DNA of 64,000 bases from Patescibacteria group bacterium (GCA_042570545.1 JBHPGJ010000004.1:2223-66222); one strand, 5' to 3'. Shown: positions 12,713 through 56,577, counted from the stretch's first letter. Translations and numbers: made by a program. Notes: generated by a model not told the origin, from the sequence alone.

Positions 12713-13300
12713 TTAAACAAATCCTAGCAATATTGCTGTCGTGCCAATGATACCATGAGATAAACTTACGGCATAGATATTTGGCTGTTTTAGATATGTC
12801 CAGGTCCAATACATACCCAGAATAAAAGTTGCCACCGATATTTCTGGCTGTAAACGATAAGTATGTAGCAGGGAAAACATCAAGCCGACAATGACAATGA
12901 TCAGAACCTTGCTGTTTATTATCCTTTGTAATCTTCTTGATAAATATCCCTGAAAAGCAAATTGCTGTGAAATCACTCCGATCAGAAAATAATAAACAAA
13001 AAAGACCGTATTCCACCAAATATCCGGCCGGCCCTTTATAAAATAAACTACGATCAACACTGAAGCGATAAGCAACGTACCAGGCAGAAAAGCTTTGATT
13101 GATAAGATAAAATTATCTCGCCGCAAGCCAAGTTCTTTTAAGGTGATCCTTCTTTTTATTATTAAAATAATAATTATTAATAAGGCTGCTTCCATAATCC
13201 AGTAACGCCAAAGCAGCGGTAATATTCGAAAGGTGAATAAAGCCACTGGCAACACAAGTAAAAATAGTGCCTCTAATATGATACTGACTCTACTACTCAT
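12713..13300 (-). CDS. membrane protein with CPBP (CAAX protease-like) motif arrangement; catalytic EE replaced by QQ
   Basis: 195 aa, 5-6 TM. Motif 1 is SQQFAFQGYL (canonical EExxxR), motif 2 is FSLLH and motif 3 is SHGIIG. Confidence 0.35.
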   Translation of the reverse strand: MSSRVSIILEALFLLVLPVALFTFRILPLLWRYWIMEAALLIIIILIIKRRITLKELGLRRDNFILSIKAFLPGTLLIASVLIVVYFIKGRPDIWWNTVFFVYYFLIGVISQQFAFQGYLSRRLQRIINSKVLIIVIVGLMFSLLHTYRLQPEISVATFILGMYWTWTYLKQPNIYAVSLSHGIIGTTAILLGFV

Positions 13301-14045
13301 TAAAAAGTACTTTTTGACATGTGCTATCTATACATTGTGCTATGTAGTTGGTGTTCTTATATTCACCCGGACAAGCCGAGGAGACGCAATTATCAATTGA
13401 TTGCTGCAGCTCCTGCAAGGATTGTAAATTTACTGCTACATATTCGGACTGGGCGTAGTCTTGTACTTCACAAAGTGGCCGATAGCAGGTTTCGTCGGTT
13501 AGATTTTTATTCACTATTGTGCAATCATTGCTGATCGAACATTTTATCGTTACCTGACCATCAAAATAAGTCAGCGGCAGCTCATCCTCGGGTCCATACT
13601 CGATACAAGCACAAGTACACTGGCCGGCCAAACACTCGAACATCGTACTAGTACTAGCCGGACAACTTACATTATCACAATATGTTGAGCAATCATTGCG
13701 AACTGTGCATTCACGGGCTGGCCCAATCGAATTAATATTTACACTGGTTGAATTGGAACTGTTGCTGGTGTTAATATTGACGCTAGAATTTGTGTTTGTA
13801 TTAATTATCAAACCCTGATTATTATTTTGACCGACGTTGGTATTACCAACTTCAATTAAATTGGTATTACTTATCGTATTCAACTGTTCGGCCAAGGCTG
13901 CAGCTTCGGCTCGGCTCTTGGCCAGGGCAACATTCAATTTATCCGTACCCTGCTTGTTTAAAACTATCGTACCTAAAACAAAAACCGTCAATGCCAACAC
14001 TAAGCTAATTGATAATATATTAAAAATGCTTTTTTTGTTTTCCAT
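13293..14045 (-). CDS. secreted/anchored Cys-rich protein with N-terminal signal-anchor, coiled coil and Asn/Ser/Thr-rich linker
   Basis: 250 aa. The C-terminal ~150 aa contain about 20 Cys in spaced CxxxC / C-x-C patterns. It belongs to the surface-protein operon. Confidence 0.5.
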   Translation of the reverse strand: MENKKSIFNILSISLVLALTVFVLGTIVLNKQGTDKLNVALAKSRAEAAALAEQLNTISNTNLIEVGNTNVGQNNNQGLIINTNTNSSVNINTSNSSNSTSVNINSIGPARECTVRNDCSTYCDNVSCPASTSTMFECLAGQCTCACIEYGPEDELPLTYFDGQVTIKCSISNDCTIVNKNLTDETCYRPLCEVQDYAQSEYVAVNLQSLQELQQSIDNCVSSACPGEYKNTNYIAQCIDSTCQKVLFNE

Positions 14046-14065
14046 TTAATAATTATCTGAGTTAA

Positions 14066-14710
14066 TTATTTGAACTGTACAGATTCCTTGATCAGGTCAA
14101 ATACATGGACGGCTTGTTCATATTCTTCAGCTTTGGCCAGAGCAACTATTTGGTATAAGGTACCCTGATAGTATACATTAATGACCTCAACTTTCCAGAT
14201 ACCATCACTACCAATTATTAATTCTGAAATTGCCGGCTGACCGCCGATTAATATCTGCTCCGTTCCGGTAGTAAAATCTTCGGGTGATTTATAATATGTC
14301 TCGTAGGTCTGCTGACAACTTAATAGATCACCGCACTGATCATCGTCTATGGTCATCACTGAAAAGCGTGAGCCGCCATAATTATTGCAAACAAAACCAC
14401 CCATATCAACATCTTCATCATCAAGCACTGACTGAGGCCGGTCTAGCTGCATACAGCCGGGCGGGTATTTAAAAGATATTTCTTGTCCACTAAGCGAGAA
14501 TCGGCTCCACTCATCATCATCAAAATTCTTGATACTATAGTCGGGCTGACTATTGATGTTGGTATTAACAGAGACGTCAAAAGTTTGAAATAAATAAATA
14601 ACAATAAATATGGCTACCAAGGCTAGTATAACAATCCCAAATACTATTTGTGTTGTGGCTAGTGGATTATCGTTAAATTTATTTTTTTTATCATATACTG
14701 ACTCAGGCAT
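14066..14710 (-). CDS. membrane-anchored extracytoplasmic protein, hypothetical
   Basis: 214 aa with a single N-terminal TM (FGIVILALVAIFIVIYLF) and an acidic ectodomain. Confidence 0.5.
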   Translation of the reverse strand: MPESVYDKKNKFNDNPLATTQIVFGIVILALVAIFIVIYLFQTFDVSVNTNINSQPDYSIKNFDDDEWSRFSLSGQEISFKYPPGCMQLDRPQSVLDDEDVDMGGFVCNNYGGSRFSVMTIDDDQCGDLLSCQQTYETYYKSPEDFTTGTEQILIGGQPAISELIIGSDGIWKVEVINVYYQGTLYQIVALAKAEEYEQAVHVFDLIKESVQFK

Positions 14711-14757
14711 ATTATTTGCTGTAGCTGTTTATATTGAATAATATCTTCTCAACCATG

Positions 14758-15855
14758 CTAGTAAATGATTATAGTGCTCATAATATCATCCAACATTTCT
14801 AAGCCTGATAACTGCTGATCACCGGTTGGGACAAAACCGCTGATGGTATATCTCTTATCATTTACTATGGTTCCTATAACAATAGCTCGGGAACTACCTT
14901 CAACCTGGCTGTCAGTAATTAACTTCTTAAATTGTTTATCATTTATTATGGCATAATCACAAGACAAGACAGTCTCGTACTCCGGATTACTGCTGTCGCA
15001 GCTGATGACATTTTCAACGGTGTTATTATCAGAGTTATTATAGATAGCAAAATCGGCTTTTATCATACCGTCATCCAGCCCGCCGCGACCGGCTGCCTGG
15101 GTCGTATCCCAATTGGTTAAGATCCAGCTAAAGACATCATTTATCTGGGATTCACTGCCTATGAACCATCCCTCCGTGGGATACTTAAAATTCAAAGATC
15201 CATCACTGCTATTATAAGTCTGCCAATCAGCTGTTGGATCTTTAAAAAACTGAAAAGTAGTCAAGACTTGCGCCAGTTCAGGATAATCTTCAACATAAAC
15301 AGTCGCCCAGGCTAATTTGATAAAACCGTCCACGGTTGGAAAATAAACCGCATCTAACTCGGTTAATCCCAGTTCCAATTGTCTAGTTACATCAAGTCCA
15401 TTAATTGTTTCGGTTCTTGTATCCGATACATCAGTGGTCACCATTGTATCAACAAATTGCATTGTTACGGTCGGCGCCAACTCCGGTGATGATTCGGTGC
15501 CGGCGTCAGTCGGATAAACTTGAGTAAAGGTCGGCTGTACGTTCTTAGCCCAGCCTAGGGGGTATTTTATAGTGTAGTTATATTCATCATTTGTATAAGC
15601 CAACCAGTTGGTCGTATTGGCTGCCGAGTTGGTGTTAATCAGGCTGGTGTTGGTAACGATAGCAGTATTTGTATTTTCTGTGGTTCGGTTGGTATTTAAT
15701 ATGGTGTTGTTTGTGGCGACTGGAGTATTGGTATTAACATTAGTATCATTATCAACCTCCAGCTTGAACCACACCATAGCACTTACCACAGCTAAGGAAA
15801 TCACAGCGATCACAATTACCGCAACGATATGAATATAGGCTTTTTGGTTAATCAT
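14758..15855 (-). CDS. surface protein, paralog family A (N-terminal anchor MINQKAYIHIVAVI..., Thr/Asn-rich linker, C-terminal globular domain)
   Basis: 365 aa. The conserved N-terminus is shared with 15858..16997 and 20440..21936, followed by a low-complexity TNTN linker. Confidence 0.55.
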   Translation of the reverse strand: MINQKAYIHIVAVIVIAVISLAVVSAMVWFKLEVDNDTNVNTNTPVATNNTILNTNRTTENTNTAIVTNTSLINTNSAANTTNWLAYTNDEYNYTIKYPLGWAKNVQPTFTQVYPTDAGTESSPELAPTVTMQFVDTMVTTDVSDTRTETINGLDVTRQLELGLTELDAVYFPTVDGFIKLAWATVYVEDYPELAQVLTTFQFFKDPTADWQTYNSSDGSLNFKYPTEGWFIGSESQINDVFSWILTNWDTTQAAGRGGLDDGMIKADFAIYNNSDNNTVENVISCDSSNPEYETVLSCDYAIINDKQFKKLITDSQVEGSSRAIVIGTIVNDKRYTISGFVPTGDQQLSGLEMLDDIMSTIIIY

Positions 15856-15857
15856 AA

Positions 15858-16997
15858 TTAGCGATAAAACAATAGACTATCAACTATTTTATTGAAAGTA
15901 TTTAGAGAACTAATGCTATTGTAGCCATGATAATACAGCTGATACTGATCGCCGCCGAAGTCAAAGAAAACATAGGCTGCCTCTGTACCAGCGGACGGTG
16001 CTGGCCCCTCAACGTCCTTGAAGGTGCCGATTACTCTGGTAGCTGGCCGGCCACCGACGGTAATTTCTGTCCTCTCGGTCACATTTAGCGCATCGGCCAC
16101 GCTCTGTATTTCTGATTCAGTGGTGCTTTCACCCTGGAATATTTTAATATTTATTCGGGTTGATCCGCCGGCATTGCAGATGGGAGCATAGGCATCATCT
16201 ATATACAGACCAGAGTAATCAGAACCGCAAGTGGTGATAGACCAATCGGGTGGATAAGCAAAGGTAAAGCCATAGGTTTCATTGTCTTGAGTTGGCCAGT
16301 TGGGCTTGTCGGCGACGGTAAAATCAAATATATCAACTAATTGCAGAAATTGCGCATGCGAAGGAGTCTGATCGGCAAACTCAGTCTTGGCATCAAACTC
16401 AATACCCCAGGTAGCGGCATTGTACGAGAAGAAGTAGTAATCAACCATTGATTCAAAGGCTCCCAATACTCTCGTCTGGTTCGCATCGTGGGTTCCCTGT
16501 ATACGATAGCCATCAACTCCGAGAATCTTAATTGGTTCTGGAGTTAAACCACCTGACATACTCTCGGCAAATGTCAGTAGATCGTTCTGAAAGTGATATG
16601 AGACTATGCCTATAGATCCTGGACCAACCGCATCAGTATACAACGCACTGTCTTTGTTTGGATTAGCTTCTGACGCTATTCGAATAATGCCGGCCAGTCC
16701 CCCGTTTTCGTGCCACTTAACTTCGGTATCCGGTGGATACTTAAATGTAACTCCAAGAAAATCATTAGTATAAGTATGCCAGATGGCGTCTTCCCTAACC
16801 GAAACATTGGTATTGATTATCGATTGATTGGTATTCTGATTACTGCTCGGTTCGTCTTTGCTTATACCTACGGTTGTGTTAGTATCGTCAATTTTATCTA
16901 CTTCGGTTTTAAAATAAACCATGGCGGCGACTACCGTAATAGCGATAGCGCTGATCGTTATTACGGCGACAATGTGCGTAAAAGCTTTTTGATTCAT
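15858..16997 (-). CDS. surface protein, paralog family A (MNQKAFTHIVAVI... anchor)
   Basis: 379 aa with a 3-nt intergenic gap. Same N-terminal module and a divergent C-terminal domain. Confidence 0.55.
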   Translation of the reverse strand: MNQKAFTHIVAVITISAIAITVVAAMVYFKTEVDKIDDTNTTVGISKDEPSSNQNTNQSIINTNVSVREDAIWHTYTNDFLGVTFKYPPDTEVKWHENGGLAGIIRIASEANPNKDSALYTDAVGPGSIGIVSYHFQNDLLTFAESMSGGLTPEPIKILGVDGYRIQGTHDANQTRVLGAFESMVDYYFFSYNAATWGIEFDAKTEFADQTPSHAQFLQLVDIFDFTVADKPNWPTQDNETYGFTFAYPPDWSITTCGSDYSGLYIDDAYAPICNAGGSTRINIKIFQGESTTESEIQSVADALNVTERTEITVGGRPATRVIGTFKDVEGPAPSAGTEAAYVFFDFGGDQYQLYYHGYNSISSLNTFNKIVDSLLFYR

Positions 16998-16998
16998 A

Positions 16999-19548
16999 TT
17001 ATTGTTCTACCCAATATAATATCTCCAGCGAGCTAACGTGTGGTTTGTTATCAATATTATCGGTCGACATCACTATTCGCCAACTTAGTTCATTACCGGT
17101 AGTGGTAAATTCATGTTTTTCATCATGAGATACTTCAAACCAATCGGCGCCGCGATTATTACTCAGATAATACTTGATCGAAGCCCCCTCGGGTACATTA
17201 TGATCAATTTTAACAGTCGCTGACAATACATTATTAGTCAGCTGAGGATTTAAGGTGAACTGTTCGGCAAATTGCTCTAATGGCACGCCCGCACGATCAG
17301 CCTGCATAATTAGCGTCTGGGAGCCGAGTAAGAAGTTGGGTGACGAATAGTGCATACCATATATGTCATGCGGTATGGCATATGACACATCAATAACATT
17401 ATCTTCCCTGTCTATGATATTAAGCTGCTGACCCTGCTTGCCGGATACAGCAATATTACCTTCCTCGCCAGTAATATCACCAACAGTAACACCATCAAAG
17501 CCCTTAAGGACGTTGGTCAATGGGGTTGCTTTCACCCGGTTATATTCTGCTAGCTGTAAGATGGGGTCATCGGTTTGCCAGGCAATCCACCAGAGTAGAT
17601 TATTTACCACAATTCCAGCTGGTTCTAGGTCCTTGTAAGCAATGAAGTGATCCGAAACATCCGTCAATGTTTTACCGTTATACTCTAGCATCGTACCCTT
17701 ACCGGCAAATAGCCACCGTTCACCATTATGACCTATCTCAGATATTAAGGTGCTGTCTGTTAGCAAGCTACTGCTAACCGTAGTCACCTGTCCAAATCTA
17801 TCGATCTTGCCAAACAGTGCTGGTACGTTGGTATTGTCACAGCCACTGGTAATAAACAATACAAAGTTTCCGGTCACATCATTGCCCCGACTTAGGTAAT
17901 AAGGGTAATCGCAAGCCCGGGGCGAGAAATCATGCAATATAGTTACACTGTTGCCACTATACTTTAACAATCGTTGCCGGTTGCTAATTATGTAATCAGT
18001 GCCGTTCCATTCAAAATCCACCTTATCGCCATTGGTTATAAAGTCGGGAAGTTTATCAGTGATATCGGTAAATTGCGTGCTGACTAAATCGTATTTTACT
18101 ACGCGGTGCACCCGGTCCCAGCGGCCAACGGCGATCAGACAATACCGGCCATTGCAGTCAATATTTGATATTTCCGTATGGCCGTCTTGGGGATAAAGCA
18201 ATAAATCACTGGATAAAATTTCGATTGGATAATCATGCAGTTCTAGTTTTCCGTCTTGTGAATTCCAGACAGCCCGGTCGTTACCGATTTGCCCACCACT
18301 CTTGAATTCCTGCAAATAACTGTAATGATCCTGTACGACCGTGCTGAATTCAAAAGTCGTTAAAATTTCTGCCTGAAGATCACTATTAGCACGCAGGGTC
18401 TGTTCTTCACACGAGGAAAAAGCTATCTGCAAGGTAAACATACCCCGAGGAGTATGAGTAGATACCCAACCACAGCCAGCATCGCCTTCAATATACTGCC
18501 AGCCTGGTTGATTGCCTACCTTAACGACCGTTGGTTCACTTACCGGGCCATAGACGCCAATCACGCTGCTGGCTTTTACCGGCCGATCAAAGATATTAAT
18601 ATTTATTGATCCGGTATCATTGGTAAAGCTGACCGTTTTGGCGGTGGCGTTTTCAGCTTGGGTAAATTCGGCTGGGTACTTGAAAGAAAAGCCAAACGTT
18701 TCATTGGTATGAGTTGGCCAGTCTTTGCTAACGTGATTATCCAGGGTGATATCACGAATAGTTTTTATTAGAGTTTTAAAATCATCAAGTTTTGCCAGTA
18801 CATCTTCATCATAATTCTCATTTATGATCTGTCCAACTGCATCACTGGCCTTGGTAACCAGATCCAGCCGCTGGGATTCGTTATCTGTTTCCCAAGTACC
18901 AAATTCATCACCCAATATATAGGTAGCCACAACATTACCGTAAGCACGGTGAGGTATGATGGCGCGGTAAATCAGCGCTGACTGACCGTTAAATTGACCA
19001 AGTTCATAAAATTCTACTGCCGTATGGGTATTGGTGCTTAATTTCTCTACTTTAAAAATATCATCAAAATCAGAATTTAAAATATTATATAATTCGTCTA
19101 CGCTTAGATTCAGATCCAGTGGTTTGGTATATTGGGTGTTGTGCCAAGTATTCTCAAGTCGGCCATAGTGATTATCCTGCTGACTCATCGCCAGATTATA
19201 ATCTCCGATAGTTAAAAATACAGATTCCCACTGATCTGACGGATCGGCGTCAGGATTTTCTACCACTCCAGAATAAGCCTCTTTTACCTCGGCTGAAGAT
19301 GGATGTTGAAATGTGGTATTCAGATCACTATTGGTATAGAGCTCCCAACTACTGTCAACCAGGGATGAGGTGTTGGTATTATTAACATTGGTCGTTACTA
19401 CGGCCGGTGTTGTCGCCGCCCGCTCATCAGCCTCGCCTTTATACCAAATCATTACACCCGCCATACTAAGAGCAATAACGCCGATAGTGATAGCGACCGC
19501 TATATGGATAAAGCCTTTTTTATTTTTCATCTTATTAATGTTACTCAA
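16999..19548 (-). CDS. large surface protein (849 aa), paralog family A (anchor KKGFIHIAVAI...)
   Basis: The N-terminal anchor has a pilin-like KG|F junction, followed by a Thr/Asn-rich linker and a large ectodomain. Confidence 0.55.
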   Translation of the reverse strand: MSNINKMKNKKGFIHIAVAITIGVIALSMAGVMIWYKGEADERAATTPAVVTTNVNNTNTSSLVDSSWELYTNSDLNTTFQHPSSAEVKEAYSGVVENPDADPSDQWESVFLTIGDYNLAMSQQDNHYGRLENTWHNTQYTKPLDLNLSVDELYNILNSDFDDIFKVEKLSTNTHTAVEFYELGQFNGQSALIYRAIIPHRAYGNVVATYILGDEFGTWETDNESQRLDLVTKASDAVGQIINENYDEDVLAKLDDFKTLIKTIRDITLDNHVSKDWPTHTNETFGFSFKYPAEFTQAENATAKTVSFTNDTGSININIFDRPVKASSVIGVYGPVSEPTVVKVGNQPGWQYIEGDAGCGWVSTHTPRGMFTLQIAFSSCEEQTLRANSDLQAEILTTFEFSTVVQDHYSYLQEFKSGGQIGNDRAVWNSQDGKLELHDYPIEILSSDLLLYPQDGHTEISNIDCNGRYCLIAVGRWDRVHRVVKYDLVSTQFTDITDKLPDFITNGDKVDFEWNGTDYIISNRQRLLKYSGNSVTILHDFSPRACDYPYYLSRGNDVTGNFVLFITSGCDNTNVPALFGKIDRFGQVTTVSSSLLTDSTLISEIGHNGERWLFAGKGTMLEYNGKTLTDVSDHFIAYKDLEPAGIVVNNLLWWIAWQTDDPILQLAEYNRVKATPLTNVLKGFDGVTVGDITGEEGNIAVSGKQGQQLNIIDREDNVIDVSYAIPHDIYGMHYSSPNFLLGSQTLIMQADRAGVPLEQFAEQFTLNPQLTNNVLSATVKIDHNVPEGASIKYYLSNNRGADWFEVSHDEKHEFTTTGNELSWRIVMSTDNIDNKPHVSSLEILYWVEQ

Positions 19549-20473
19549 TAAACCTAAAGCTATTGGTCATCTCAGGATCCAGCGGTTCAAAATCCTCGGT
19601 GGCAAATGAAGATGCCTGGCCCAAATCCCAGGTCACTGCTATATTACCATCGGGATAATACTTAACTACAAAGGCGTAGTTTAAAAAACAACCTGAATCC
19701 GGCCCACCTGAATTAATAGCTACGTCAAATACACCAGCTTGTAAATCAGATTCTGTCTGTGAATCAACGTTGCATACGCCAGTTCCAAAATTTGTATCCA
19801 CGAAATCATTTAACTCACTATCATTTGTCACCGTGGCGGTCTTAAAATGCCAAGTCTGAGGCGGATCACTGCTTAACCTTTCATAGCTGTTGTTAACCAG
19901 ATTACATTCGGAAAAATTATGCGTTCCGTCTGCCTCTTCAGTTTCGCCACTTAATTCGTATAGAGATTCTTGAGCAATAATTACTGAATCATCTCCCTCA
20001 AAAGTTTTTACCGGCAACATCCCACCGGTCGGCCGATAAGAATCTGTTTGCCACTCGCAGCCGGCATAGCCAAACCAGGCTTGCTTGGGAATGTTCAGAT
20101 AAAAGCCCAGGTCATTATTGGTATATCTATTCCACGTGTCATCAATGCTCTCGGTTGTGGAGCCGGTCAAAGTTACTGCCGTGTTGGTATTTACAGTAGT
20201 GTTGGTATCGGTCCTTGATATGTTTGTATTTACAGGCTGAGTATTCGCTGTCTCGGGTAAGCTATTAATATTTTCTTCTACTTGCTTCTGCTCATCAACA
20301 TTCTGCTGGTAGACGATAACTGCTGACAGTAACACTACTGTCACGCCGAGTATCAGGCCGATAGCTAATAGGTTGGTCAGTCCCTTTTGATTGGTCATAG
20401 ATTTTTTATTAATTATTTTAGGTAGCTTGGTTAATATTTTTATGGTACAGATGTATATGACTCTAAGATACAC
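19541..20473 (-). CDS. surface protein, paralog family B (anchor MTNQKGLTNLLAIGL...)
   Basis: 310 aa. The first ~54 aa are nearly identical to those of 21963..22643. A C-terminal ...NSFRFIE motif is shared with 20440..21936. Confidence 0.55.
   Translation of the reverse strand: MYLRVIYICTIKILTKLPKIINKKSMTNQKGLTNLLAIGLILGVTVVLLSAVIVYQQNVDEQKQVEENINSLPETANTQPVNTNISRTDTNTTVNTNTAVTLTGSTTESIDDTWNRYTNNDLGFYLNIPKQAWFGYAGCEWQTDSYRPTGGMLPVKTFEGDDSVIIAQESLYELSGETEEADGTHNFSECNLVNNSYERLSSDPPQTWHFKTATVTNDSELNDFVDTNFGTGVCNVDSQTESDLQAGVFDVAINSGGPDSGCFLNYAFVVKYYPDGNIAVTWDLGQASSFATEDFEPLDPEMTNSFRFIE
20312..20473 (-). repeat. direct repeat copy 1 (5' end of family-B surface gene)
   Basis: ctattaatattttcttctacttgcttctgctcatcaacatt...ggtcat matches 22485..22643 at roughly 85% nucleotide identity. 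Confidence 0.8.
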
Positions 20474-21936
20474 TTGAGAGTATCGCGCATAGGTTCATAA
20501 TCTGTATATAAAGTGGATTCGTCGGGTGTAGAGCCGTACTCTATGCTGGTACCGTCAGCTAAAGTTATATGATTGGTTTCGTTCTTATACATTAATGTAG
20601 TGCCGGCCAGTCCAGTTGCGGGGTCTTCTGATACATAAATATTACCCGTGCCAGTGTAGCTTGCACCATCGATGTTCAGCGCATCAGTTCGGGGTATTTG
20701 ATCGATAATAACGCCAACACCAGATCGCTGACAAATAACACCAGCTGCGTTATTTTCCGGTGCGCTTATGCTAACATAAGCCGCATTATTAATGTATATT
20801 TTTACACAAAGTTCGTTGCCATATACGGCAAACTTATCGGCAAATGTCATGCCGGCAGCTACTTCATCCGGGGACAGGCTGAAAGCATTCTCTTCAAGGA
20901 GGGTTATTGTAGATGTCGGCGGGTGCATTACTGAATAGTTATATGTGTTGTTGGTATAGGTTGACCAGCCGTCAGTGCAAGTGGCCACTTCATCAGCCGC
21001 AGTGTTGGTGTTTGTTGTTCCTGTTTCTTCATCATCCATTAAAAAACGGAAGCTGTTTACCATACTTTCGTCATACGAATAAAATCCGGCTTCGCTGGCG
21101 AAATCAGCCGGGTCAACTGCCCAAAAATATGGTTCCTGGCCCAGATTCCAACCCACTGCTTTCCCTAAACCAGGGTGGTAAAGTAATTGATAGACATAAT
21201 TTACCGGGCACTTTGTCTCGTCAAGGTCAAGTTCGTCACCTTCGATGGTAACGTCAAAAACTCCAGCCTGATGGTCCCAGGCCGTCTGACTGCCCAGCGA
21301 ACAACCTTCGCCCCATTTGGACTTAATAAAACTGTCCAGTTCCTCATCATTAGAAACATCGGCGAAATCCAATTTCCAACCATCCCAAAAATAACTTTCC
21401 TTCGTGACGTCCGCTAAATCTACGTTGATTCGTTGACAGCCGGCAAAGGTCATACTGCCATCGGGTAACTCAGTGCCCTCAGTTAATTCGAAATAATGGT
21501 CTCGCGTGATATAAAAGGTATTTGCGTCATCAAGATATAAAGATGACACCATACCTTCAGACAAGCTAAAATTCCCATGCCCATCATCGCCACAGCTTCC
21601 AGCGTAGACATAAAAGTACTGGGGTAGGCGTATTGAAAAACCATTACTTTCATCGGCATATAAGCCAAGGTCAGCCTCGCTTGGGCCGCCTTCAGGCACC
21701 GTCGTCCCCTCCAGTGTCTGGGTGTAAGTTTGTCCATTGGCTACACAGGTCCAGGGCGACTGTTCATCATTGACCGGATAACCGGCGGCAACGCACTTAT
21801 CAAATGTATTAATAGTATCAGCCGTAGGCAGTTTATTCGCTTCTGTTTTAAACCACAACATAGCACCGACGGCTCCAGCAGCGATAACAGCAATGAAGAT
21901 GACAGCAACAATGTGGGTAAAGGCTCTTTGGTTCAT
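20440..21936 (-). CDS. surface protein, chimeric paralog (family A anchor plus family B C-terminal domain)
   Basis: 498 aa. It carries the MNQRAFTHIVAVI anchor, a DKCVAAGYPV module shared with 55952..56554, and a QAGVFDV...NSFRFL domain shared with 19541..20473. Confidence 0.55.
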   Translation of the reverse strand: MNQRAFTHIVAVIFIAVIAAGAVGAMLWFKTEANKLPTADTINTFDKCVAAGYPVNDEQSPWTCVANGQTYTQTLEGTTVPEGGPSEADLGLYADESNGFSIRLPQYFYVYAGSCGDDGHGNFSLSEGMVSSLYLDDANTFYITRDHYFELTEGTELPDGSMTFAGCQRINVDLADVTKESYFWDGWKLDFADVSNDEELDSFIKSKWGEGCSLGSQTAWDHQAGVFDVTIEGDELDLDETKCPVNYVYQLLYHPGLGKAVGWNLGQEPYFWAVDPADFASEAGFYSYDESMVNSFRFLMDDEETGTTNTNTAADEVATCTDGWSTYTNNTYNYSVMHPPTSTITLLEENAFSLSPDEVAAGMTFADKFAVYGNELCVKIYINNAAYVSISAPENNAAGVICQRSGVGVIIDQIPRTDALNIDGASYTGTGNIYVSEDPATGLAGTTLMYKNETNHITLADGTSIEYGSTPDESTLYTDYEPMRDTLKCILESYTSVP

Positions 21937-21962
21937 AGTTTATTAGTTAGTGTTGAACATAA

Positions 21963-22643
21963 TCATCCAGCAAAGCTGAATGAGTTATAAAAATCCTCAA
22001 AATTAGGTTCAAGTAAAGCGGCGTTGCTGATTACATAAACACGATCAAGCAACTCGACAAAGACGAGTATATAATCACCAACGCTGCCATCAATCGATGA
22101 GCCGGTAGCTTTAAGCGCATCGGCGCCAGATATCTCAATATTATCTTTGGTAATAGTAAGCCCTTCTAATTTGTCTGCTATATGGGCATCAATGAATCCT
22201 TCGCTATTTTGGTATTCAATAATATTCCACTGATAATCAATATTACCTATATAAAAAGCAGTAGCATTTAATATCCCGTTTGCACCCACCTGTTCTTCAT
22301 TTACTGACCATCCAGATGGGTACTGAATAGCAAAATTATTTCCATTATGCGTCTGCCAGTCAGTATAAACATCAATATCCGGCAAATCAGTTACGCTGGT
22401 ATTGGTTAGCGAGGTGTTGGTTATGTCGGTGTTTACAACTACAGTTGTATCAGTATCGGCTGTTGAAGTATTTGCATTTGTGTGCTGACTATTTACTGTC
22501 TTGGGCAAACTATTAATATTCTCTTCTACTTGCTTCTGCTCATCAACATTCCGCTGGTAGACAATGACCACTGATAACAAAACCACCGTTACGCCTAGCA
22601 CCAGGCCAACGGCTAACAGATTGGCTAATCCTTTCTGGTTCAT
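21963..22643 (-). CDS. surface protein, paralog family B (anchor MNQKGLANLLAVGL...)
   Basis: 226 aa. Its 5' ~160 nt are about 85% identical to 20312..20473. Confidence 0.55.
   Translation of the reverse strand: MNQKGLANLLAVGLVLGVTVVLLSVVIVYQRNVDEQKQVEENINSLPKTVNSQHTNANTSTADTDTTVVVNTDITNTSLTNTSVTDLPDIDVYTDWQTHNGNNFAIQYPSGWSVNEEQVGANGILNATAFYIGNIDYQWNIIEYQNSEGFIDAHIADKLEGLTITKDNIEISGADALKATGSSIDGSVGDYILVFVELLDRVYVISNAALLEPNFEDFYNSFSFAG
22485..22643 (-). repeat. direct repeat copy 2 (5' end of family-B surface gene)
   Basis: Near-identical to 20312..20473. Most differences are synonymous or conservative. Confidence 0.8.
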
Positions 22644-22669
22644 GTTTTTTATACCTCCTGTTTATTTTT

Positions 22670-23437
22670 TTAGTTTGTGAATTGGAAAGTAGAGAGGATT
22701 TGTTCCCACAAGATAATATCACCAGTACCGAGTGTATCTTCGTAAAAAGTCATGACAAAAGCTTGCGTACCGTCATCTAAACAATATTCATTTGGATAAC
22801 TATAGATTTCGTCCGGTGTCCCATCTAGCTGGACCTTATTAACTAGCTTTACGCCTGGCAGGGAACCGATGGTAATGGAGCTTCGAGATATTTCCTCAAG
22901 TACAAACGGGGTAGACGCATAGTTATCAAAACATGACTGGCCCTCATTTAACCGCACTGGGCCAGGTGAAAACTCGGCTATCTTAACTGAGTTCTCATCA
23001 CTGAAAACTGAAGAGCCATTAAATGACCAAGTAGCCGGATATTTTAAACTAAAGTTAACCATTGGCAAGCCTCCTCCGGGATAGCTGTTCCAATCAGTTG
23101 TGGTAAAAGTTCCGTTATAATCGATATTAATCGATTCGTAAGTTTGCCAGTCGGCCAATTCATTCGTTGAGGTATTTGTATTTGTGGTCGTTATGGCCGT
23201 ATTAGTATTAAAGGTCAACGAGTTGGTATTACTGACTGTGGTATCTGTAGTATTGGTGTTAATCTCATTATCAGCCGAACGGGTCATATTGAACTCATTT
23301 ATCTCATCCAGAGCATGGATCAAGCGGTCGGTGCTGATTTTATTTAAAATTACCGTTGATAATACAAAAACGGTAAGTGATAAAATAAGCCCCTGCAAAA
23401 TCAGTATTGTCAGATAGGGCGTTTTTTTGTTGGCCAT
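22670..23437 (-). CDS. surface protein, first gene of the array (signal-anchor, coiled coil, Thr/Asn-rich linker)
   Basis: 255 aa. A 124-bp AT-rich putative promoter region lies upstream (23438..23561). Confidence 0.5.
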   Translation of the reverse strand: MANKKTPYLTILILQGLILSLTVFVLSTVILNKISTDRLIHALDEINEFNMTRSADNEINTNTTDTTVSNTNSLTFNTNTAITTTNTNTSTNELADWQTYESINIDYNGTFTTTDWNSYPGGGLPMVNFSLKYPATWSFNGSSVFSDENSVKIAEFSPGPVRLNEGQSCFDNYASTPFVLEEISRSSITIGSLPGVKLVNKVQLDGTPDEIYSYPNEYCLDDGTQAFVMTFYEDTLGTGDIILWEQILSTFQFTN

Positions 23438-23561: not shown

Positions 23562-24872
23562 TTATTTCTTCAGCCAGTCGCTACTTTGCCTTACTAATAA
23601 TTCCGGTGCGCGGAGCGGTTCGGCCATTATACGCTTCACCATTTTTTCCATACGGCTAATCTGTGATCCTTTAATTAATATTATATCGTCCTTATTAATT
23701 TGGTGCTGTAAATATTTACCGGCCTCAGTAGAATTGGTAAAGATTTTAATCTTGTCAGCCGCTAGACCGGCTTTTCTTGCCTCCTGTGAATATATACCGG
23801 CCAGCTCGCCTACCGCTAATAACATATCAGCTTTCTGGCCGACTTTTTTACCGACGAGTTTATGCCCCTCACCAGCATAGTCGCCTAATTCTGCCATATA
23901 ACCTAAGGCGGCAATTCGTCTTTTGGTTTTAGGAAAATTCCCTAATGTATCCAGAGCGGCCAGGGCTGCTTCGGGAGAAGAATTATAACTGTCGTCAATA
24001 ATGAAAGCATTATTAATTGCTGGTATTAATCGCATTCGGCCGGGTGGTGATACGTAATTTTCTAACCGGGCAGCTGTGTCCGGCAAGCTTAAACCATAAG
24101 CTATACCAATTGCTGTCGCGGCCAGGGCGGCATAAACTTGCTGTTTACCAATTACTCCAGGTAGAATAAAATCTTGTTTATTACCCTCATAATTGACTTG
24201 AAAGCTTGTTCCTTGCAGTTTTTCCTGCCGAATACTATCCGGCTGGGCGATAGCACTGCTTTGCAGTTTTAGTTTCTGTGCTTTGATTTCATTTATTTTA
24301 TCAAAACCGTAAGTGGTCAACTGCACATCAATTGGTGTTTTTAACTTGCTGATAGTTTTATCGTCACCATTGATCACGCCAAAGCCATCCTCGGGCAGGT
24401 TGGTTATTAGTTTCTTCTTTTCTTCTATTACCGCTTCCATGGTTTTAAAAAATTCTAAATGAACCGGCGTAATAGCGGTAATCACGCCTATGCGGATCGG
24501 TGCAATGCTAAGCAGATAGTCAATGTCACCGGTTTTTTCGGCGCCCATTTCCAACACTAATATCTTGGGATAGTCATGCGGCCAGACAGCTAGCCAACAA
24601 CCTTTGATAATCTCCTTTAGCCAACCAAAAATATTAGCCCCGTGCACTTGACCATCAATAATAGCTAAGGGTAGACCTAACTCATTGTTATAATTACCTA
24701 CACTCTGACGTATGTAAAAACGTTGGGCCAATACACAACTGATGGCTTCCTTGGTGGCTGTTTTACCGACCGTACCGGTGACGCCAATAACATCAGGTTG
24801 ATAACGCCTGACAATCCGCCGGGCAATTGAACCCAATATTTTTTCTAGTAGCTTCTGTAGCCGTTGCTTCAT
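23562..24872 (-). CDS. murF: UDP-N-acetylmuramoyl-tripeptide--D-alanyl-D-alanine ligase
   Basis: 436 aa with the Mur ligase P-loop GVTGTVGKT, the MurF-type GNYNNELGLPL motif and LEMGA. It belongs to the dcw cluster. Confidence 0.8.
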   Translation of the reverse strand: MKQRLQKLLEKILGSIARRIVRRYQPDVIGVTGTVGKTATKEAISCVLAQRFYIRQSVGNYNNELGLPLAIIDGQVHGANIFGWLKEIIKGCWLAVWPHDYPKILVLEMGAEKTGDIDYLLSIAPIRIGVITAITPVHLEFFKTMEAVIEEKKKLITNLPEDGFGVINGDDKTISKLKTPIDVQLTTYGFDKINEIKAQKLKLQSSAIAQPDSIRQEKLQGTSFQVNYEGNKQDFILPGVIGKQQVYAALAATAIGIAYGLSLPDTAARLENYVSPPGRMRLIPAINNAFIIDDSYNSSPEAALAALDTLGNFPKTKRRIAALGYMAELGDYAGEGHKLVGKKVGQKADMLLAVGELAGIYSQEARKAGLAADKIKIFTNSTEAGKYLQHQINKDDIILIKGSQISRMEKMVKRIMAEPLRAPELLVRQSSDWLKK

Positions 24873-24911
24873 AATGCCAGACTACCACTGCTGAAGATTT
24901 TTTTCAAAAAC

Positions 24912-26657
24912 CTATTCCACGGTTATTGATGGTGGAATATTCAAATAATTAACTAGCCAGGCAGCCATCTCACCAAACAATGGAGCGGCTGAACTCTCAG
25001 CGGCCTGTACATCACGCGGTACATCTATCTTGGCCAGCATGACAAACTGCGGATCGGTAGCCGGTGCGAAGCCGGCAAAAGAGCCAATTGTCCTATTTTC
25101 ATCATAACCAGCTCCGCTTTCCTTTGGTATTTGAGCGGTACCTGTCTTGCCAGCTACAAAGTAGCCTGGTACACCCGCTCTCTTACCGTGTCCATTCTGA
25201 ACAACGCTTACTAACATAGCTGATATCGTTCTGGCCGTGCTGGGTTGGATTACTTGACGGATCGATTGTGGCTCGGTCTTTATTACGGCGCCGTTTGGTT
25301 TGTGTATCTCATCAATTATGTATGGCTTCATTAATGTACCACCGTTAGCAATAGCTCCATAGGCGGTCACCAGCTGAAGCGGAGTAACTGTTATACCCTG
25401 GCCAAATGAAGCAGTAGAAGTGTATAAATCTCGATGTAGATTTAAGGTAGATATATCGCCCCCGTTTTCTGATTCTAATTCAATGTTAGTCTGCAGACCA
25501 AATCCATAAGCCTTGACATACTGCTCAAAGAGCACGTCGCCTACCTGGCGGGCGGCGAAAATTGCTCCCGTATTAATTGATTCTTCCAGCACCTGAGTCA
25601 TCGTCTGCTGGCCATAGACTTTATTTTCATAATTTTTAATCGTGTATCTACCTATTACTTCTTGTCCTTCGTCAACAAAGGTTGTCTGCGGTGTAACTAC
25701 TCCCAGGTCAATCGCCGCTGACATTGTGATCGGCTTGAAGACTGAACCAGGCTCGTAGGTATAGAAAGTGGACGGATTAAGAAATAAATTGATATTTTCC
25801 ACTTCATTATAATTATTTGGATCAAAATCGGGCGAGCCGCACATGGCCATTATGGCACCCGTTTTCGGATTTATTATTATCAGGCTACCGCCATCAGCGC
25901 CATGTCTTAGTACCGCCTCATTCAGTCGCTGACAAGCTTGATATTGAATATTTCGATCAATGGTTAGCACAACATCGTCCCCGTCCTGAGCTTCTTCGAT
26001 GCTGGTCGTACCAACGGTTATCCAATTGCCGCCGGCATCGCGCTCTATATTCAATTCACCGTACTTACCCGCCAGCTCTTCTTTGTAATAACCTTCAATA
26101 CCATATTGTCCAATTCGATTTTCACCATCGTTACCTAGAAAGCCTATAATATGTGAGCCGATGTTTTTCTCGGGATAATATCTATCGGGCTCAATCTGAA
26201 AATGAAGACCCTCTAACCCTAAATTTGAAATATATTCTTTGTATTCAGTGGTAAGGTTGTGGGCCACCGGTTCATAAATATCATCAACTTTTCTCAATCG
26301 ACTTAACACCGCTTCTGTATCAATGTCTAAAATCTGTTCCAATTGATCTACTACTTCATCCGGTTCGGTTATTTGCTTAGGATTAGCATATAACAGATAT
26401 GTATTTTCATTAAGGGCCATTGGAAATAACTTTTCACTATTATAATCCCGAGCATATACTTCACCCCTGATCGGCACTAATCGTTCATAAATACGGTGCT
26501 GATCGTCGGCCAGCGCAGCATAGACGCCATGCTCAATTATTTGTAAATTAAAAAGCCGGAACAAAATAAAACCAGCAAAAATTATCAACAATCCTCTTAA
26601 CAATGACAGTCGATCGATTTCACGCCGGCTTTTATTACGGCTTTTTCTCTTTACCAT
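24912..26657 (-). CDS. ftsI: peptidoglycan D,D-transpeptidase (PBP2/FtsI class)
   Basis: 581 aa with an N-terminal TM and the SVFK (SxxK), SIN (SxN) and KTGT motifs. It belongs to the dcw cluster. Confidence 0.88.
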   Translation of the reverse strand: MVKRKSRNKSRREIDRLSLLRGLLIIFAGFILFRLFNLQIIEHGVYAALADDQHRIYERLVPIRGEVYARDYNSEKLFPMALNENTYLLYANPKQITEPDEVVDQLEQILDIDTEAVLSRLRKVDDIYEPVAHNLTTEYKEYISNLGLEGLHFQIEPDRYYPEKNIGSHIIGFLGNDGENRIGQYGIEGYYKEELAGKYGELNIERDAGGNWITVGTTSIEEAQDGDDVVLTIDRNIQYQACQRLNEAVLRHGADGGSLIIINPKTGAIMAMCGSPDFDPNNYNEVENINLFLNPSTFYTYEPGSVFKPITMSAAIDLGVVTPQTTFVDEGQEVIGRYTIKNYENKVYGQQTMTQVLEESINTGAIFAARQVGDVLFEQYVKAYGFGLQTNIELESENGGDISTLNLHRDLYTSTASFGQGITVTPLQLVTAYGAIANGGTLMKPYIIDEIHKPNGAVIKTEPQSIRQVIQPSTARTISAMLVSVVQNGHGKRAGVPGYFVAGKTGTAQIPKESGAGYDENRTIGSFAGFAPATDPQFVMLAKIDVPRDVQAAESSAAPLFGEMAAWLVNYLNIPPSITVE

Positions 26658-26697
26658 AAAAAATTAGTAATACGATTTAACCATTATTAATAAACTA

Positions 26698-27081
26698 CTA
26701 TGGCTGTACAGCCACGGCGCCGCCGCTGACGTCTAGATACTCAATCGTATCTGTCTGTACTAATTGTAGATCACTTATTTTGCTTTCTACTTGAGATAAA
26801 GACTGCAAATTAGCCACCCTTAACTCTAGTTGACCGTTTTGTAGTCTAAGTTCATCAACTTCAGTCCTCAGATCATCTAAGGCAAAGCCGCCAGTGGCCA
26901 CATTATTTATTATGACAATATAAGCCAGCCCCATAACAATCACCAGGATAAAAACAATATATCTAAGTTTTGGTTCGATTTTTCCCAAAGATAGCCTTTT
27001 AACAAAAGATTGATTAGCTGGTTGATTAAAGTTTGTCATAATTTTATTTTTATATGATTTCGGCACAGCGTAATTTCGCAC
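26698..27081 (-). CDS. ftsL: cell division protein FtsL-like (TM plus coiled coil)
   Basis: 127 aa with a single TM followed by a leucine-zipper-like coiled coil. It sits between rsmH and ftsI. Confidence 0.55.
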   Translation of the reverse strand: MRNYAVPKSYKNKIMTNFNQPANQSFVKRLSLGKIEPKLRYIVFILVIVMGLAYIVIINNVATGGFALDDLRTEVDELRLQNGQLELRVANLQSLSQVESKISDLQLVQTDTIEYLDVSGGAVAVQP

Positions 27082-28018
27082 TACGACTGGCCGGGTTTTT
27101 ATTTATTTCTTCTTGTTTTGGTATTTGTGGTTTTTTGGTAAGTATTTTTAATCTGGCCTCATGATCACAAACGCACTTTGGCAGACTTGGTGGACAGATA
27201 CAATCTTTACTTTCAGCTTTAAAATATTTTTTAACGATTCTATCCTCAAGAGAGTGATAACTTATCACTACCAAGCGGCTACCGACGCCCATTATAGAGG
27301 TGAGACTTTTTAAGCCACCATCTAATTCCCCTAACTCATCATTGACAGCGATACGCAGTGCTTGAAAAATTTTTGTGGCGGGATGTCTTCCGCCAATCCA
27401 TGGTTGCCGTGATTTGGTCTTTAGCTTTTTTTTATACACCCCGTCTATTATCTCGGTTAATTGTTTGGTTCTGTTAATCGGCTCTAGCTTTCTAGCAACA
27501 ACTATCTGGCGGGCGATAGGGACGGCTTGACGTTCTTCACCGTAGTCTTTAAATATTTTTATTAATGTGGCAAGGGACGATTTATTTATAATTAGCTCGG
27601 CTGTTTTTTCAGATGATGAATCAAACCGCATATCAAGCGGTTCATCTTTTAGAAAGGTAAATCCTCTCCCGGTAAAACGGAGCTGATCCAGTGAGAGGCC
27701 AAGGTCCAATAATGCTCCGCTAAAATTAATAGTATTAAATAGTTCATCATTTTTTATTATTTGTTTTACTTCAGAATATTTTTTTTGAAATAAATATACC
27801 CGAGATCTATATTGATGTAATTTTTGTTCAGCTAATCTTACTGCGCCATGATCACGATCGAACCCTAATAATATCCCTCGCGGTTTAGTAAGCCTCAGTA
27901 ATTCTTCGGCGTGTCCTCCACCTCCAACTGTTGCGTCAATATAATTTTTGTCCGTTGCCGGCTTCAACCAGCCCAATACTTCCGACACCATTACCGGTGT
28001 GTGGCTACTGTTGGACAT
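27050..28018 (-). CDS. rsmH: 16S rRNA (cytosine1402-N4)-methyltransferase RsmH/MraW
   Basis: 322 aa with HTPVMVSEVLGWL...YIDATVGGGGHAEELL. It lies immediately downstream of mraZ. Confidence 0.92.
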   Translation of the reverse strand: MSNSSHTPVMVSEVLGWLKPATDKNYIDATVGGGGHAEELLRLTKPRGILLGFDRDHGAVRLAEQKLHQYRSRVYLFQKKYSEVKQIIKNDELFNTINFSGALLDLGLSLDQLRFTGRGFTFLKDEPLDMRFDSSSEKTAELIINKSSLATLIKIFKDYGEERQAVPIARQIVVARKLEPINRTKQLTEIIDGVYKKKLKTKSRQPWIGGRHPATKIFQALRIAVNDELGELDGGLKSLTSIMGVGSRLVVISYHSLEDRIVKKYFKAESKDCICPPSLPKCVCDHEARLKILTKKPQIPKQEEINKNPASRSAKLRCAEII

Positions 28019-28030
28019 TTTTAAAACGAT

Positions 28031-28462
28031 CTAAACGCTTAACTCATCTAACGCTTCAGCAATATCACTTGAACTTTTTTCACTATCACCCTTGTATTGC
28101 TCCCAGCTGGTGGCGTCCCAGATCTCCAACCGGTCGGAAACTCCAGCTATTATGGTTTTCTTTTTTAATTCAGCGTAACTTCGAAGGTAATCCGGCAGAA
28201 TGATTCTGCCCTGTTTGTCTAATTCAACTTCCATCGCCCCGGTTAACATTAACCTGGCAAAAGCTCTGGTATTTGATTTGGATATAGGTAATTTTGATAT
28301 TTTATCTGCTAATTCTTCCCAAGCTTCTTTTGTATACAGTGATAGACAATTATCAATACCGCGCGTTACCACCGCTCCTTTAGCAAAAGCTGGCCGAAAC
28401 CTAACCGGTACGGCGATTCGACCCTTTTGATCAAGCGAATGATGATATTCTCCAATAAACAT
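28031..28462 (-). CDS. mraZ: transcriptional regulator MraZ
   Basis: 143 aa with the duplicated MraZ domain (MFIGEYHHSLDQKGRIAVP...KQGRIILP). Confidence 0.92.
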   Translation of the reverse strand: MFIGEYHHSLDQKGRIAVPVRFRPAFAKGAVVTRGIDNCLSLYTKEAWEELADKISKLPISKSNTRAFARLMLTGAMEVELDKQGRIILPDYLRSYAELKKKTIIAGVSDRLEIWDATSWEQYKGDSEKSSSDIAEALDELSV

Positions 28463-41267: not shown

Positions 41268-41888
41268 ATGGAAGCTGATAAAACATCATCAATAAAACCA
41301 AAAAACTGGCGTCGGTGGCTAGGTATTTCACTTATGACCATAGGTGCGGCTATCATTATATATCCCCTCTGGCCAGTAATCCGGTATGAGATATTACGCC
41401 CTGAGCCCAGCTTTCCCTACGCTACAAAATTGAGTGCTAATCCTGAATTATTTCATCTACCAGAAATTAATACTAAATCAGAATTTATCCCCCAGGACAA
41501 CCGACTTGTCGTTCCTAAAATTGGCGTTGATATACCCATAACTGAAGGAGCTGATGAAAATGCTTTATATCGTGGCGCTTGGCGTATCCCCTATACATCA
41601 AATCCGATTGATGGTGGTAACACTGTTTTATCAGCTCATCGATTTCAATATACCGCTGGTCCGATGACCTTTTTTCTATTACCTAAATTAGAACCAGACG
41701 ATACTTTTATTGTCTATTGGCAAGGCCAAGAATACGATTATCAAGTTACTGATAAAAAAGTTGTTCATCGAAGTGAAGTAAGCGTATTAAACAACACCGA
41801 AAGCCCGCAAGTGACCCTCTTTACCTGCACCCCGGTTTATCAAAGAAATTCGGAGTGGCGCTTAGTTATTATTGGCGAGCCCATATAA
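41268..41888 (+). CDS. sortase-family transpeptidase
   Basis: 206 aa with an N-terminal TM, a catalytic His region (LSAHRFQY) and the TLFTCTP cysteine motif. Confidence 0.65.
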   Translation: MEADKTSSIKPKNWRRWLGISLMTIGAAIIIYPLWPVIRYEILRPEPSFPYATKLSANPELFHLPEINTKSEFIPQDNRLVVPKIGVDIPITEGADENALYRGAWRIPYTSNPIDGGNTVLSAHRFQYTAGPMTFFLLPKLEPDDTFIVYWQGQEYDYQVTDKKVVHRSEVSVLNNTESPQVTLFTCTPVYQRNSEWRLVIIGEPI

Positions 41889-41924
41889 AAAAACTCTAAG
41901 TTATATGGATTTTCATCAATGGGA

Positions 41925-41953
41925 TTGACAAAATCGCAATTTTGTAGTACAAT
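41925..41953 (+). promoter_or_regulatory. sigma70-like promoter TTGACA-N17-TACAAT upstream of the CAP-domain gene
   Basis: TTGACA at 41925-41930 and TACAAT at 41948-41953. The ATG is at 41974. Confidence 0.4.
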
Positions 41954-41973
41954 TTCGTGTTAATATTGAAACT

Positions 41974-43404: not shown

Positions 43405-43407
43405 GTT

Positions 43408-56554: not shown

Positions 56555-56577
56555 ATTATTGTTTATTAATAATGAAA

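Follow-up and report, generated by a model that had tools for sequence, protein, structure and literature searches.

Tandem arrays of surface-tethered paralogs with a conserved N-terminal targeting or anchor region and divergent exposed parts are known from the variable lipoprotein loci of mycoplasmas. Bulky modules carried by a short N-terminal signal and helix are known from modular type IV pilins (PilB and PilC of Streptococcus sanguinis) and from tip pseudopilins without Glu5 (GspK), in which a short basic leader with Gly or Ala at its end precedes Phe or Leu, the helix and the module. Domains of the PsbP/Mog1/DcrB type lack enzymatic activity and bind proteins or ligands, in many cases outside the cytoplasm. 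Contact with a host cell is a requirement for Patescibacteria, yet most of their surface proteins are unannotated. In this study, we closely examined a 64,000-nucleotide stretch of DNA from a Patescibacteria group bacterium (GCA_042570545.1, JBHPGJ010000004.1:2223-66222; here called the window, to which all positions refer) and in it an array of genes for putative anchored surface proteins at 12713-23437 on the minus strand. The locus is of a known kind, a paralogous surface-protein array, and what it mainly adds is a domain family absent from the catalogues searched, together with a pattern of anchor sharing.

Ten co-directional, tightly packed open reading frames (ORFs) fill exactly these coordinates, just as a first-pass annotation made from the sequence alone had reported; they are here labelled g01 (12713-13300) to g10 (22670-23437). 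That annotation had counted all ten as one family, which held for nine of them (g02 to g10), whereas g01 encodes a five-helix CPBP/Rce1-like protein. Since g01 is not a member of the anchored family, the array has nine genes. The NCBI locus tags ACFL04_01545, ACFL04_01570 (the product of 20440-21936, on a 91-kb contig) and ACFL04_01575 are consistent with these gene calls. Two listed starts were too long and were corrected to the ATG at 20398 for g07, in agreement with the database protein P0004, and to the ATG at 19530 for g06. The packing, first described as gaps down to overlaps, is indeed tight, although with the corrected starts the intergenic distances are 26, 26, 41, 10, 1, 2, 47, 20 and -8 nt and thus range from -8 to +47 nt.

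The explanation that we favor, with moderate confidence, is a lineage-specific tandem expansion of nine genes for signal-anchored, outward-facing modular proteins of binding type. The N terminus would lie inside the cell and the bulk of the protein outside, with a basic leader of five to six residues followed by a helix from one of three conserved anchor classes. A Thr/Asn/Ser-rich spacer of 30 to 60 residues would probably carry the globular part through the cell wall, and the protein would end in one to three non-enzymatic binding-type modules, most of which may be part of, or derived from, the PsbP/Mog1/DcrB-like superfamily, while two genes would carry a domain that we name QAG. The array may have arisen from old duplications and module exchange at the linkers, with the anchors retained by purifying selection, and the degenerate CPBP homolog g01 may act on the anchors without cleavage. 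The proteins would most likely bind partners or serve as scaffolds in the envelope or on the surface of the cell, toward self or host structures, because PsbP/Mog1/DcrB domains are non-enzymatic and the QAG domain lacks an evident catalytic-type constellation.

The products of g02 to g10 start with an N terminus of 4 to 14 residues (net charge, 0 to +3), followed by one uncharged stretch of 25 to 30 residues whose C-terminal flank is acidic in seven of the nine. No lipobox, LPXTG motif or C-terminal helix was found in any of the nine proteins, and all of them have an even number of ectodomain cysteines (16, 4, 2, 2, 6, 4, 10, 0 and 2). Hydropathy, charge flanks and even cysteine counts together make up the pattern expected if a signal anchor stays uncleaved and carries an extracytoplasmic body with disulfide bonds, and g02 to g10 show these predicted features of anchored ectoproteins with the N terminus inside and the C terminus outside. 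The arrangement first described for every gene, i.e., a basic N terminus, one helix and a low-complexity linker, was found in these nine, with differences in the linker: an Asn/Thr/Ser-rich stretch (content of at least 0.6 in a 25-residue window) follows the anchor in six genes, is weaker in g05 (0.56) and g03 (0.36) and in g08 lies between modules instead.

Both anchor types recognized in the first-pass annotation are real, but a third class exists. Class A ('MNQKAFTHIVAVI') is common to g04, g05 and g08 with 56 to 64% identity over 36 residues, and looser members are g06 (39 to 44%) and the distant gene 55952 (33 to 42%). Class B, the MNQKGL(T/A)NLLA type, is found in g07 and g09 with 81% identity. 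Class C comprises g02 and g10 (50% identity), and the anchor of g03 stands alone. The likeness of g07 and g09 spans the helix plus a charged juxtamembrane segment of 16 residues (NVDEQKQVEENINSLP) and ends within the linker; at the DNA level it is the sole long repeat of the region (221 nt, 74% identity). Over 57 codons, pS is 0.66, dS about 1.6 (saturated) and dN 0.10. Because synonymous sites are saturated while dN is this low, the shared anchors are old and under purifying selection rather than products of recent gene conversion, and their constrained sequence suggests a specific interaction inside the membrane.

This selection exceeds what hydrophobicity alone would demand, which also speaks for a different reading of the N termini, as class-III-like signals of the prepilin-peptidase type (M-x-(N/K)-Q-K-[G/A], cut before F, L or Y) that would make the products pilin-like modular subunits, tip adhesins or membrane-retained substrates. 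The leaders of g04 to g09 and of 55952 have five to six residues, end in K/R-G/A and precede F, L or Y and the helix (MNQKA↓F, MKNKKG↓F, MTNQKG↓L), much as in type IVa pilin leaders such as MKAQKG↓F. A polar residue (H, N, Q or Y) is kept at +3, and the junction also stands before unrelated ectodomains elsewhere (P0002, P0003, L002, L003 and L017; 'GF(T/A/V)LPI' form). However, Glu is absent from +5 (positions +2 to +5 read THIV, IHIA, TNLL or ANLL), there is no Pfam N_methyl match at E<=1, and the helix is followed by a low-complexity linker instead of a pilin globular domain, all of which sets the array proteins apart from the modular pilins and GspK. The window ORFs scanned included neither type IV pilus genes nor a gene for a prepilin peptidase, a genuine pilin in the related locus L032 has the canonical GFTLIE, and the G/A junction is missing from g02, g03 and g10. 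The strict junction expression matched 5 of 144 QAG members, two or three of them lipoprotein-like, though it misses some such leaders. On balance, we regard processing of this type as improbable. We give a similarly small chance to a broader proposal, in which the conserved N terminus would be a sorting signal akin to class III without Glu5. It would mark a Patescibacteria-wide set of 'cargo on a pilin-like helix' proteins and serve as one dedicated route for alternative binding modules, possibly at pilus tips, with the degenerate CPBP protein as anchor-binding partner.

The module QAGVFDV...NSFRF, from which the name QAG is coined here, recurs between g07 and g08 as first proposed, with 32% identity over 209 aa (E=1e-22). 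In g07 (19541-20398; 285 aa), a class B anchor (20255-20398) and a linker (20144-20254) precede the QAG domain (19544-20140); in g08 (20440-21936; 498 aa), the domain lies at 21034-21678. A profile from these two sequences, searched against 1.84 billion cluster representatives (clusters at 50% identity), retrieved 689 clusters at E<=1e-3, of which 141 reached E<=1e-30, and a profile from 61 members in turn recovered g07 (E=5e-70) and module 1 of g08 (E=2e-62). The domain has about 205 aa and four conserved cysteines, opens with D.TWN.YTN..LGFS..P, contains the motifs Q.GVFDV, NY and W.LGQ, and ends in EM..SF.F. The typical protein has 280 to 300 aa, with an N-terminal helix, a linker and the QAG domain at the C terminus; an N-terminal membrane helix is present in 134 of the 144 representatives of full length, and a lipobox in some. 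Fusion partners are S-layer homology (SLH) domains, FGE-sulfatase and PsbP-like modules. Members with taxon names come from Anaerolineae, Gracilibacteria, Saccharibacteria, Buchananbacteria and Minisyncoccales, and they are called 'hypothetical protein' or, in the FGE-sulfatase fusion, by the name of the fused enzyme.

None of the 61 members matched a Pfam model, and neither g07 nor g08 matched an NCBIfam model. An AlphaFold2 model of the domain, built on the 61-sequence alignment, was of high confidence (pLDDT 96, pTM 0.90); a Foldseek search of the PDB with it gave no match (best E 0.1, TM at most 0.26), and a sequence-profile search of the PDB gave nothing useful. The near-invariant residues are aromatic residues, Gly, Cys, Asn, Gln and one Asp, among which no conserved catalytic-type constellation was seen. 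QAG is thus described here as a large, predicted extracytoplasmic domain family without a Pfam or NCBIfam model, on anchored or lipid-tethered surface proteins of Patescibacteria and Anaerolineae.

The C-terminal domains, first taken to be all different, for the most part have one common pair of motif brackets, the opening W..YTN..GFSF.YP(..W) and the ending ..(S/T)F.F. Such modules occur once each in g03, g09 and g10, twice each in g04, g05 and g06, and as the third module of g08. A regular expression for the opening motif, which misses several visible variants, matched 7 times in the 3,315 aa of the cluster proteins but had a single match in 15,694 aa outside the cluster, an enrichment of about 33-fold (Fisher P=4e-5), compared with 0.02 matches in shuffled cluster proteins. 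Gene g10 (255 aa) has a class C anchor (23339-23437), a Thr/Asn linker (about 23156-23284) and one module (22673-23155) with the opening WQTY.../W..Y..NFSLKYP and the ending STFQFTN. In g09 (21963-22643; 226 aa), the class B anchor with its juxtamembrane segment (22503-22643) and the linker (22368-22502) lead to one PsbP/DcrB-like module (21966-22367). Gene g06 (16999-19530; 843 aa) combines a class A-like anchor (19423-19530) with bracketed modules at 18733-19356 and 18343-18732. The class A anchor of g05 (15858-16997; 379 aa) lies at 16899-16997 and its bracketed modules at 16311-16790 and 15861-16307; that of g04 (14758-15855; 365 aa) lies at 15754-15855, followed by a Thr/Asn linker (15613-15753) and bracketed modules at 15238-15612 and 14761-15234. 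The unique anchor of g03 (14066-14710; 214 aa) has a longer N terminus (14579-14710) and is followed by a short linker and one module (14069-14518) with the variant opening W.RF......ISFKYP and the ending ESVQFK.

Residues 236 to 374 of g05, i.e., its second module, match the Pfam family PsbP_2 (PF18933) with a score of 38 bits, above the cutoff of 27 bits (E=2e-9). With the same model, g06 scored 12.8 bits, and g03, g04, g07, g08, g09 and g10 had no match. The opening motif corresponds to PsbP_2 profile positions of about 40 to 70 in g05, g06, L017, P0029 and P0050. The second modules of g05 and g06 are 31% identical over 91 aa (E=3e-5), g04 has a weak NCBIfam PsbP match (E=0.001) and matches a 270-aa protein of L003 (E=8e-5), and a profile of all ten modules had PsbP (1v2b) as its best PDB match, at E=0.19. 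Word-index searches with g05 module 2 and with the ten-module profile returned self matches only among 5.8 billion proteins. The AlphaFold2 model of the g09 module stayed poor (pLDDT 57). Foldseek with this model retrieved almost solely PsbP, CyanoP, DcrB, Tsi3 and EagT6 (E from 0.02, probability 0.99). A PsbP/DcrB-like identity is thus shown by profile for g05 module 2 and probable for the other modules. The modules resemble the PsbP_2 and PsbP-Mog1-DcrB (DUF1795) superfamily in the above-threshold match of g05, the mapping of the opening motif to the PsbP_2 profile and the suggestive fold matches of the low-confidence g09 model, but most of them lie below any family threshold, and in this array of nine genes one to three of them follow a Thr/Asn spacer and membrane anchor.

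The presence of Tsi3 among the top fold matches of the g09 model raises the idea of an extracytoplasmic immunity or inhibitor array that would neutralize incoming cell-wall hydrolases or other toxins, with Tsi3 and orphan immunity arrays as analogues. Orphan immunity genes commonly occur in diverse tandem arrays, the array lies directly downstream of mraZ-rsmH-ftsL-ftsI-murF, and a related array at locus L003 starts with an anchored serpin, a protease inhibitor. Yet the model behind the fold match is of low confidence, the fold itself serves many functions, cognate toxin genes are absent nearby, and no sequence similarity to known immunity families was found in Pfam or NCBIfam, which leaves this explanation very unlikely.

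Most ectodomain pairs are not significantly similar, and an N-terminal membrane anchor, in several cases with a Thr/Asn linker, is also found on the unrelated proteins 58266 and 62986, a GH5-like protein and the serpin. Both observations would fit a set of unrelated genes for secreted proteins whose likeness stems from the composition of signal peptides and low-complexity segments, and the first-pass annotation itself had named unrelated N termini and a lack of pairwise ectodomain likeness as what would weaken the family. Against this stand the anchor identities of 56 to 81%, which include non-hydrophobic positions and the 16-residue juxtamembrane stretch, the similarity of the QAG pair and of the second modules of g05 and g06, and the motif enrichment described above. 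Thus, at the level of sequence comparison, the anchors, the motif brackets and the QAG pair already refute the notion of unrelated genes as far as they themselves are concerned, and as an account of the whole array it is hardly credible.

The remaining modules show how the array proteins are put together. As first proposed, the product of g08 is a composite: behind its class A anchor (21838-21936) stand a C..AGYPV..TC loop (21739-21807) and the QAG domain, and a TNTNT linker (20986-21033) leads to the third module (20443-20985). This third module is 63 to 65% identical to P0002 and P0003, which have different N-terminal parts; a PDB sequence search with it gave nothing useful. The C..AGYPV..TC loop recurs in 55952 and was found only in these two among about 500 sequences examined. 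Gene g02 (13293-14045; 250 aa) has a class C anchor (13953-14045), an Asn/Ser linker (13722-13883) and a module with 16 cysteines (13296-13721), which resembles a 142-aa protein beside a g08-like gene on L001 (38% over 52 aa, E=4e-6 to 8e-6) and also recurs on L003. The C-terminal region of g06 (17002-18342; about 447 aa, residues 397 to 843) is uncharacterized, with no homolog in Pfam, among PDB sequences or elsewhere in this analysis. In a 580-aa protein of L003, a bracketed module is likewise followed by a tail of comparable length, unrelated to that of g06.

Class A anchors carry either PsbP-like modules (g04 to g06) or QAG (g08), and class B anchors carry QAG (g07) or a PsbP-like module (g09). 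The breaks in similarity lie inside the linkers, and modules of the array are found behind other anchors in other genomes. The earlier proposal that anchors and C-terminal modules recombine is borne out by these combinations, and module shuffling between anchors and ectodomains is real. A common origin of the QAG and PsbP-like modules was considered and not adopted: profile-profile comparison of QAG with the bracketed modules found only the first 19 columns in common, and QAG profile, profile-profile and jackhmmer searches link the two only through a motif of about 20 aa.

Related arrays were found in other genomes. In a related Patescibacteria genome, GCA_043817315.1 (JBDRGY010000004.1, 6911-11933; loci L003/L004), four consecutive anchored genes lie between NiFe-hydrogenase genes. 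The first product is the anchored serpin, which has a Thr/Asn linker, and in the second a long tail follows a bracketed module; the other two combine a Cys-rich module with a QAG domain 54% identical to g07 and with a bracketed module, respectively. Because the contexts differ (hydrogenase genes as opposed to a position after murF), this array and that of the window are not syntenic. Neighboring genes with nearly the same anchor and differing ectodomains also occur in L017 (eight genes) and L021 (six) and as pairs in L008, L032, L033 and L038. In L017 (metagenome contig Ga0210057_1010175, 123-10261), six of the eight consecutive genes start with a near-identical anchor, K(K/Q)xGF(T/A/V)LPIAILIAVILIAAGGAGYYFYK, and the ectodomains are unrelated: two QAG domains, a TPR protein, a Kre9/KNH-like Ig domain and a PrsA/SurA-like PPIase, the last with a different N terminus of its own. 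The 'GFTLPI' start in L017 resembles a degenerate pilin motif. Since anchor-sharing arrays recur in other Patescibacteria, the array of the window is an expanded example of a common arrangement, and the N-terminal anchor, in several cases with a Thr/Asn linker, is a predicted general mode of extracytoplasmic display in these organisms.

Such a display mode would explain, without homology, two of the three additional family members first proposed at 55952, 58266 and 62986: 55952 is homologous, whereas 58266 and 62986 are alike in architecture and composition, with no homology detected. The GH5-like protein (57049-58233) has the same kind of N-terminal anchor, and its spacer is not Thr/Asn-rich. 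Together with 55952 and 58266, it forms a second small group of anchored genes at 55952-59405 on the minus strand, interrupted at 56578-57012 by a gene for a 144-aa protein without a membrane helix. The product of 55952 has a class A-like anchor, the C..AGYPV..TC loop and a Gmad2 Ig-like main domain; that of 58266 has a Thr/Asn linker and an unassigned ectodomain.

Cultured Patescibacteria are epibionts, and envelope and adhesion proteins are essential in Southlakia (PMC10633639). This lifestyle supports a reading of the array as a diversifying or phase-varying repertoire of host-attachment adhesins, in which the modules would bind the host-cell surface and the array would provide antigenic or specificity variation. 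The extreme divergence of the non-QAG modules, with self matches only, is that of fast-evolving surface proteins, and the array is expanded relative to the single-copy state of other genomes. The first-pass annotation had likewise proposed a phase-variation or diversification locus, but the region holds no switching signals. No tandem repeats were found in it; the longest homopolymers have 8 to 9 nt and lie away from gene starts, with none of 9 nt or more at gene starts; and inverted repeats do not exceed 28 nt at 71 to 80% complementarity. There is no template/variable repeat pair in the region and no reverse transcriptase among the window ORFs scanned. Saturated dS in the anchors marks the paralogs as old. 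In contrast to the mycoplasma loci, the anchors here are membrane helices and not lipoboxes, the paralogs are ancient, and neither repeats nor invertible segments or promoters nor simple-sequence or homopolymer switches are present. Furthermore, the QAG gene is often single in other Patescibacteria, located among ribosomal-protein genes, beside aspS or near ftsA/ftsZ, and this placement among housekeeping genes is no less consistent with a general role in the cell envelope than with strain-specific adhesion. We consider an adhesin repertoire of this kind unlikely, and the first-pass annotation, which described the feature itself reasonably well, overreached in its functional reading on both phase variation and host attachment.

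The CPBP/Rce1-like neighbor g01 (12713-13300; 195 aa), which shares its first 8 nt with the end of g02, encodes a polytopic membrane protein with five predicted helices (Pfam Rce1-like/CPBP, PF02517, E=4e-13); a PDB sequence search with it gave nothing useful. The motif set of active CPBP or type II CAAX proteases, EExxxR, FxxxH and Hxxx(D/N) as defined in PMC12260438, is incomplete in g01: motif 1 reads QQFAFQ (residues 112 to 117) and motif 3 HGIIG (182 to 186), while motif 2, FSLLH (142 to 146), is intact, with the motifs placed by spacing and by eye and not from a profile alignment. The protein is thus probably a non-catalytic CAAX-protease homolog. In Staphylococcus aureus, SpbR, SpdC/LyrA and LnsB have degenerate CPBP motifs and act on membrane partners without catalysis, SpbR by binding and inhibiting type I signal peptidase (PMC12260438). 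Like these, g01 is a polytopic protein of the CPBP family with degenerate motifs 1 and 3, but the sequence relationship is at the family level only. A conserved partnership of CPBP proteins with anchored arrays was rejected, as a CPBP homolog occurs in none of 7 + 35 QAG loci (about 40). Because the pairing is not conserved, an anchor-directed, non-catalytic role for g01 is at most conjectural.

Several points weigh against the favored explanation, a nine-gene expansion of anchored binding-type proteins. The topology was called by simple hydropathy and charge rules and not by a trained predictor. Only g05 passes the Pfam PsbP_2 threshold, so that membership is established by profile for one module, and iterative sequence search did not link the remaining modules past a motif of about 20 to 30 aa. 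The fold matches of g09 are suggestive at most because of the low confidence of its model, and the confident QAG model had no PsbP-like match in Foldseek, which leaves an origin of QAG from that fold unproven. Finally, the pairing of g01 with the array is not repeated across the other loci.

Upstream of the array and on the same strand lie mraZ, rsmH, an ftsL-like gene, ftsI and murF. The dcw cluster is truncated (23562-28462, minus strand), with the anchored array directly after murF in place of the usual mraY-murD-ftsW-murG continuation. On the other side, a gene for a CoA-binding-domain protein starts 3 nt past the last cluster gene. The array thus sits inside a co-directional string from mraZ to the CoA-binding gene, and the limits of the operon cannot be read from the sequence. 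The G+C content of the array is ordinary (0.39 to 0.45), and the window otherwise holds ordinary chromosomal housekeeping genes (eno, pgk, a 7TM histidine kinase, lexA, a Y-family polymerase, L10/L7-L12, mltG, uppS, uppP, fpg and a sortase). A mobile island was rejected given this G+C content and the lack of an adjacent tRNA gene or an integrase, and a phage origin was rejected as relatives of the QAG domain were found in none of 2.9 million viral contigs. Exact look-ups of g05 and g08 found them in no public contig, and no close relative turned up when 185,579 species genomes were scanned with murF.

Elsewhere in the window, at 41268-44473 on the plus strand, the sortase gene (PF04203, E=6e-26) is followed by two genes, one for a CAP/SCP-domain protein of 476 aa and one for a Big_2 Ig-like protein of 333 aa. 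Given their C-terminal hydrophobic segments, these two proteins are likely sortase substrates and would represent a second, different route of surface display. Two large ORFs have no Pfam match, one of 746 aa (33634-35874, plus strand) and one of 528 aa (54285-55871, minus strand); in the second, five helices are predicted in the C-terminal half. An Mrr_cat restriction-endonuclease-like domain fused to an N-terminal ATP-cone is encoded at 48609-49430 on the plus strand, immediately after the sole tRNA gene of the window, a tRNA-Pro (48519-48595).

The locus gives no evidence for a new mechanism of surface variation. It defines the QAG family, which comprises at least 689 clusters (50% identity) and has a predicted structure of high confidence but neither a model in Pfam or NCBIfam nor a match in the PDB by Foldseek. 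Many of the 'orphan' surface proteins here appear to consist of a few modules (PsbP/DcrB-like, QAG, Cys-rich and a fourth type) joined at low-complexity spacers. Across Patescibacteria, neighboring genes keep the same anchor under purifying selection while their ectodomains differ, which points to a sequence-specific role of the anchor, e.g., in sorting, processing or complex formation.

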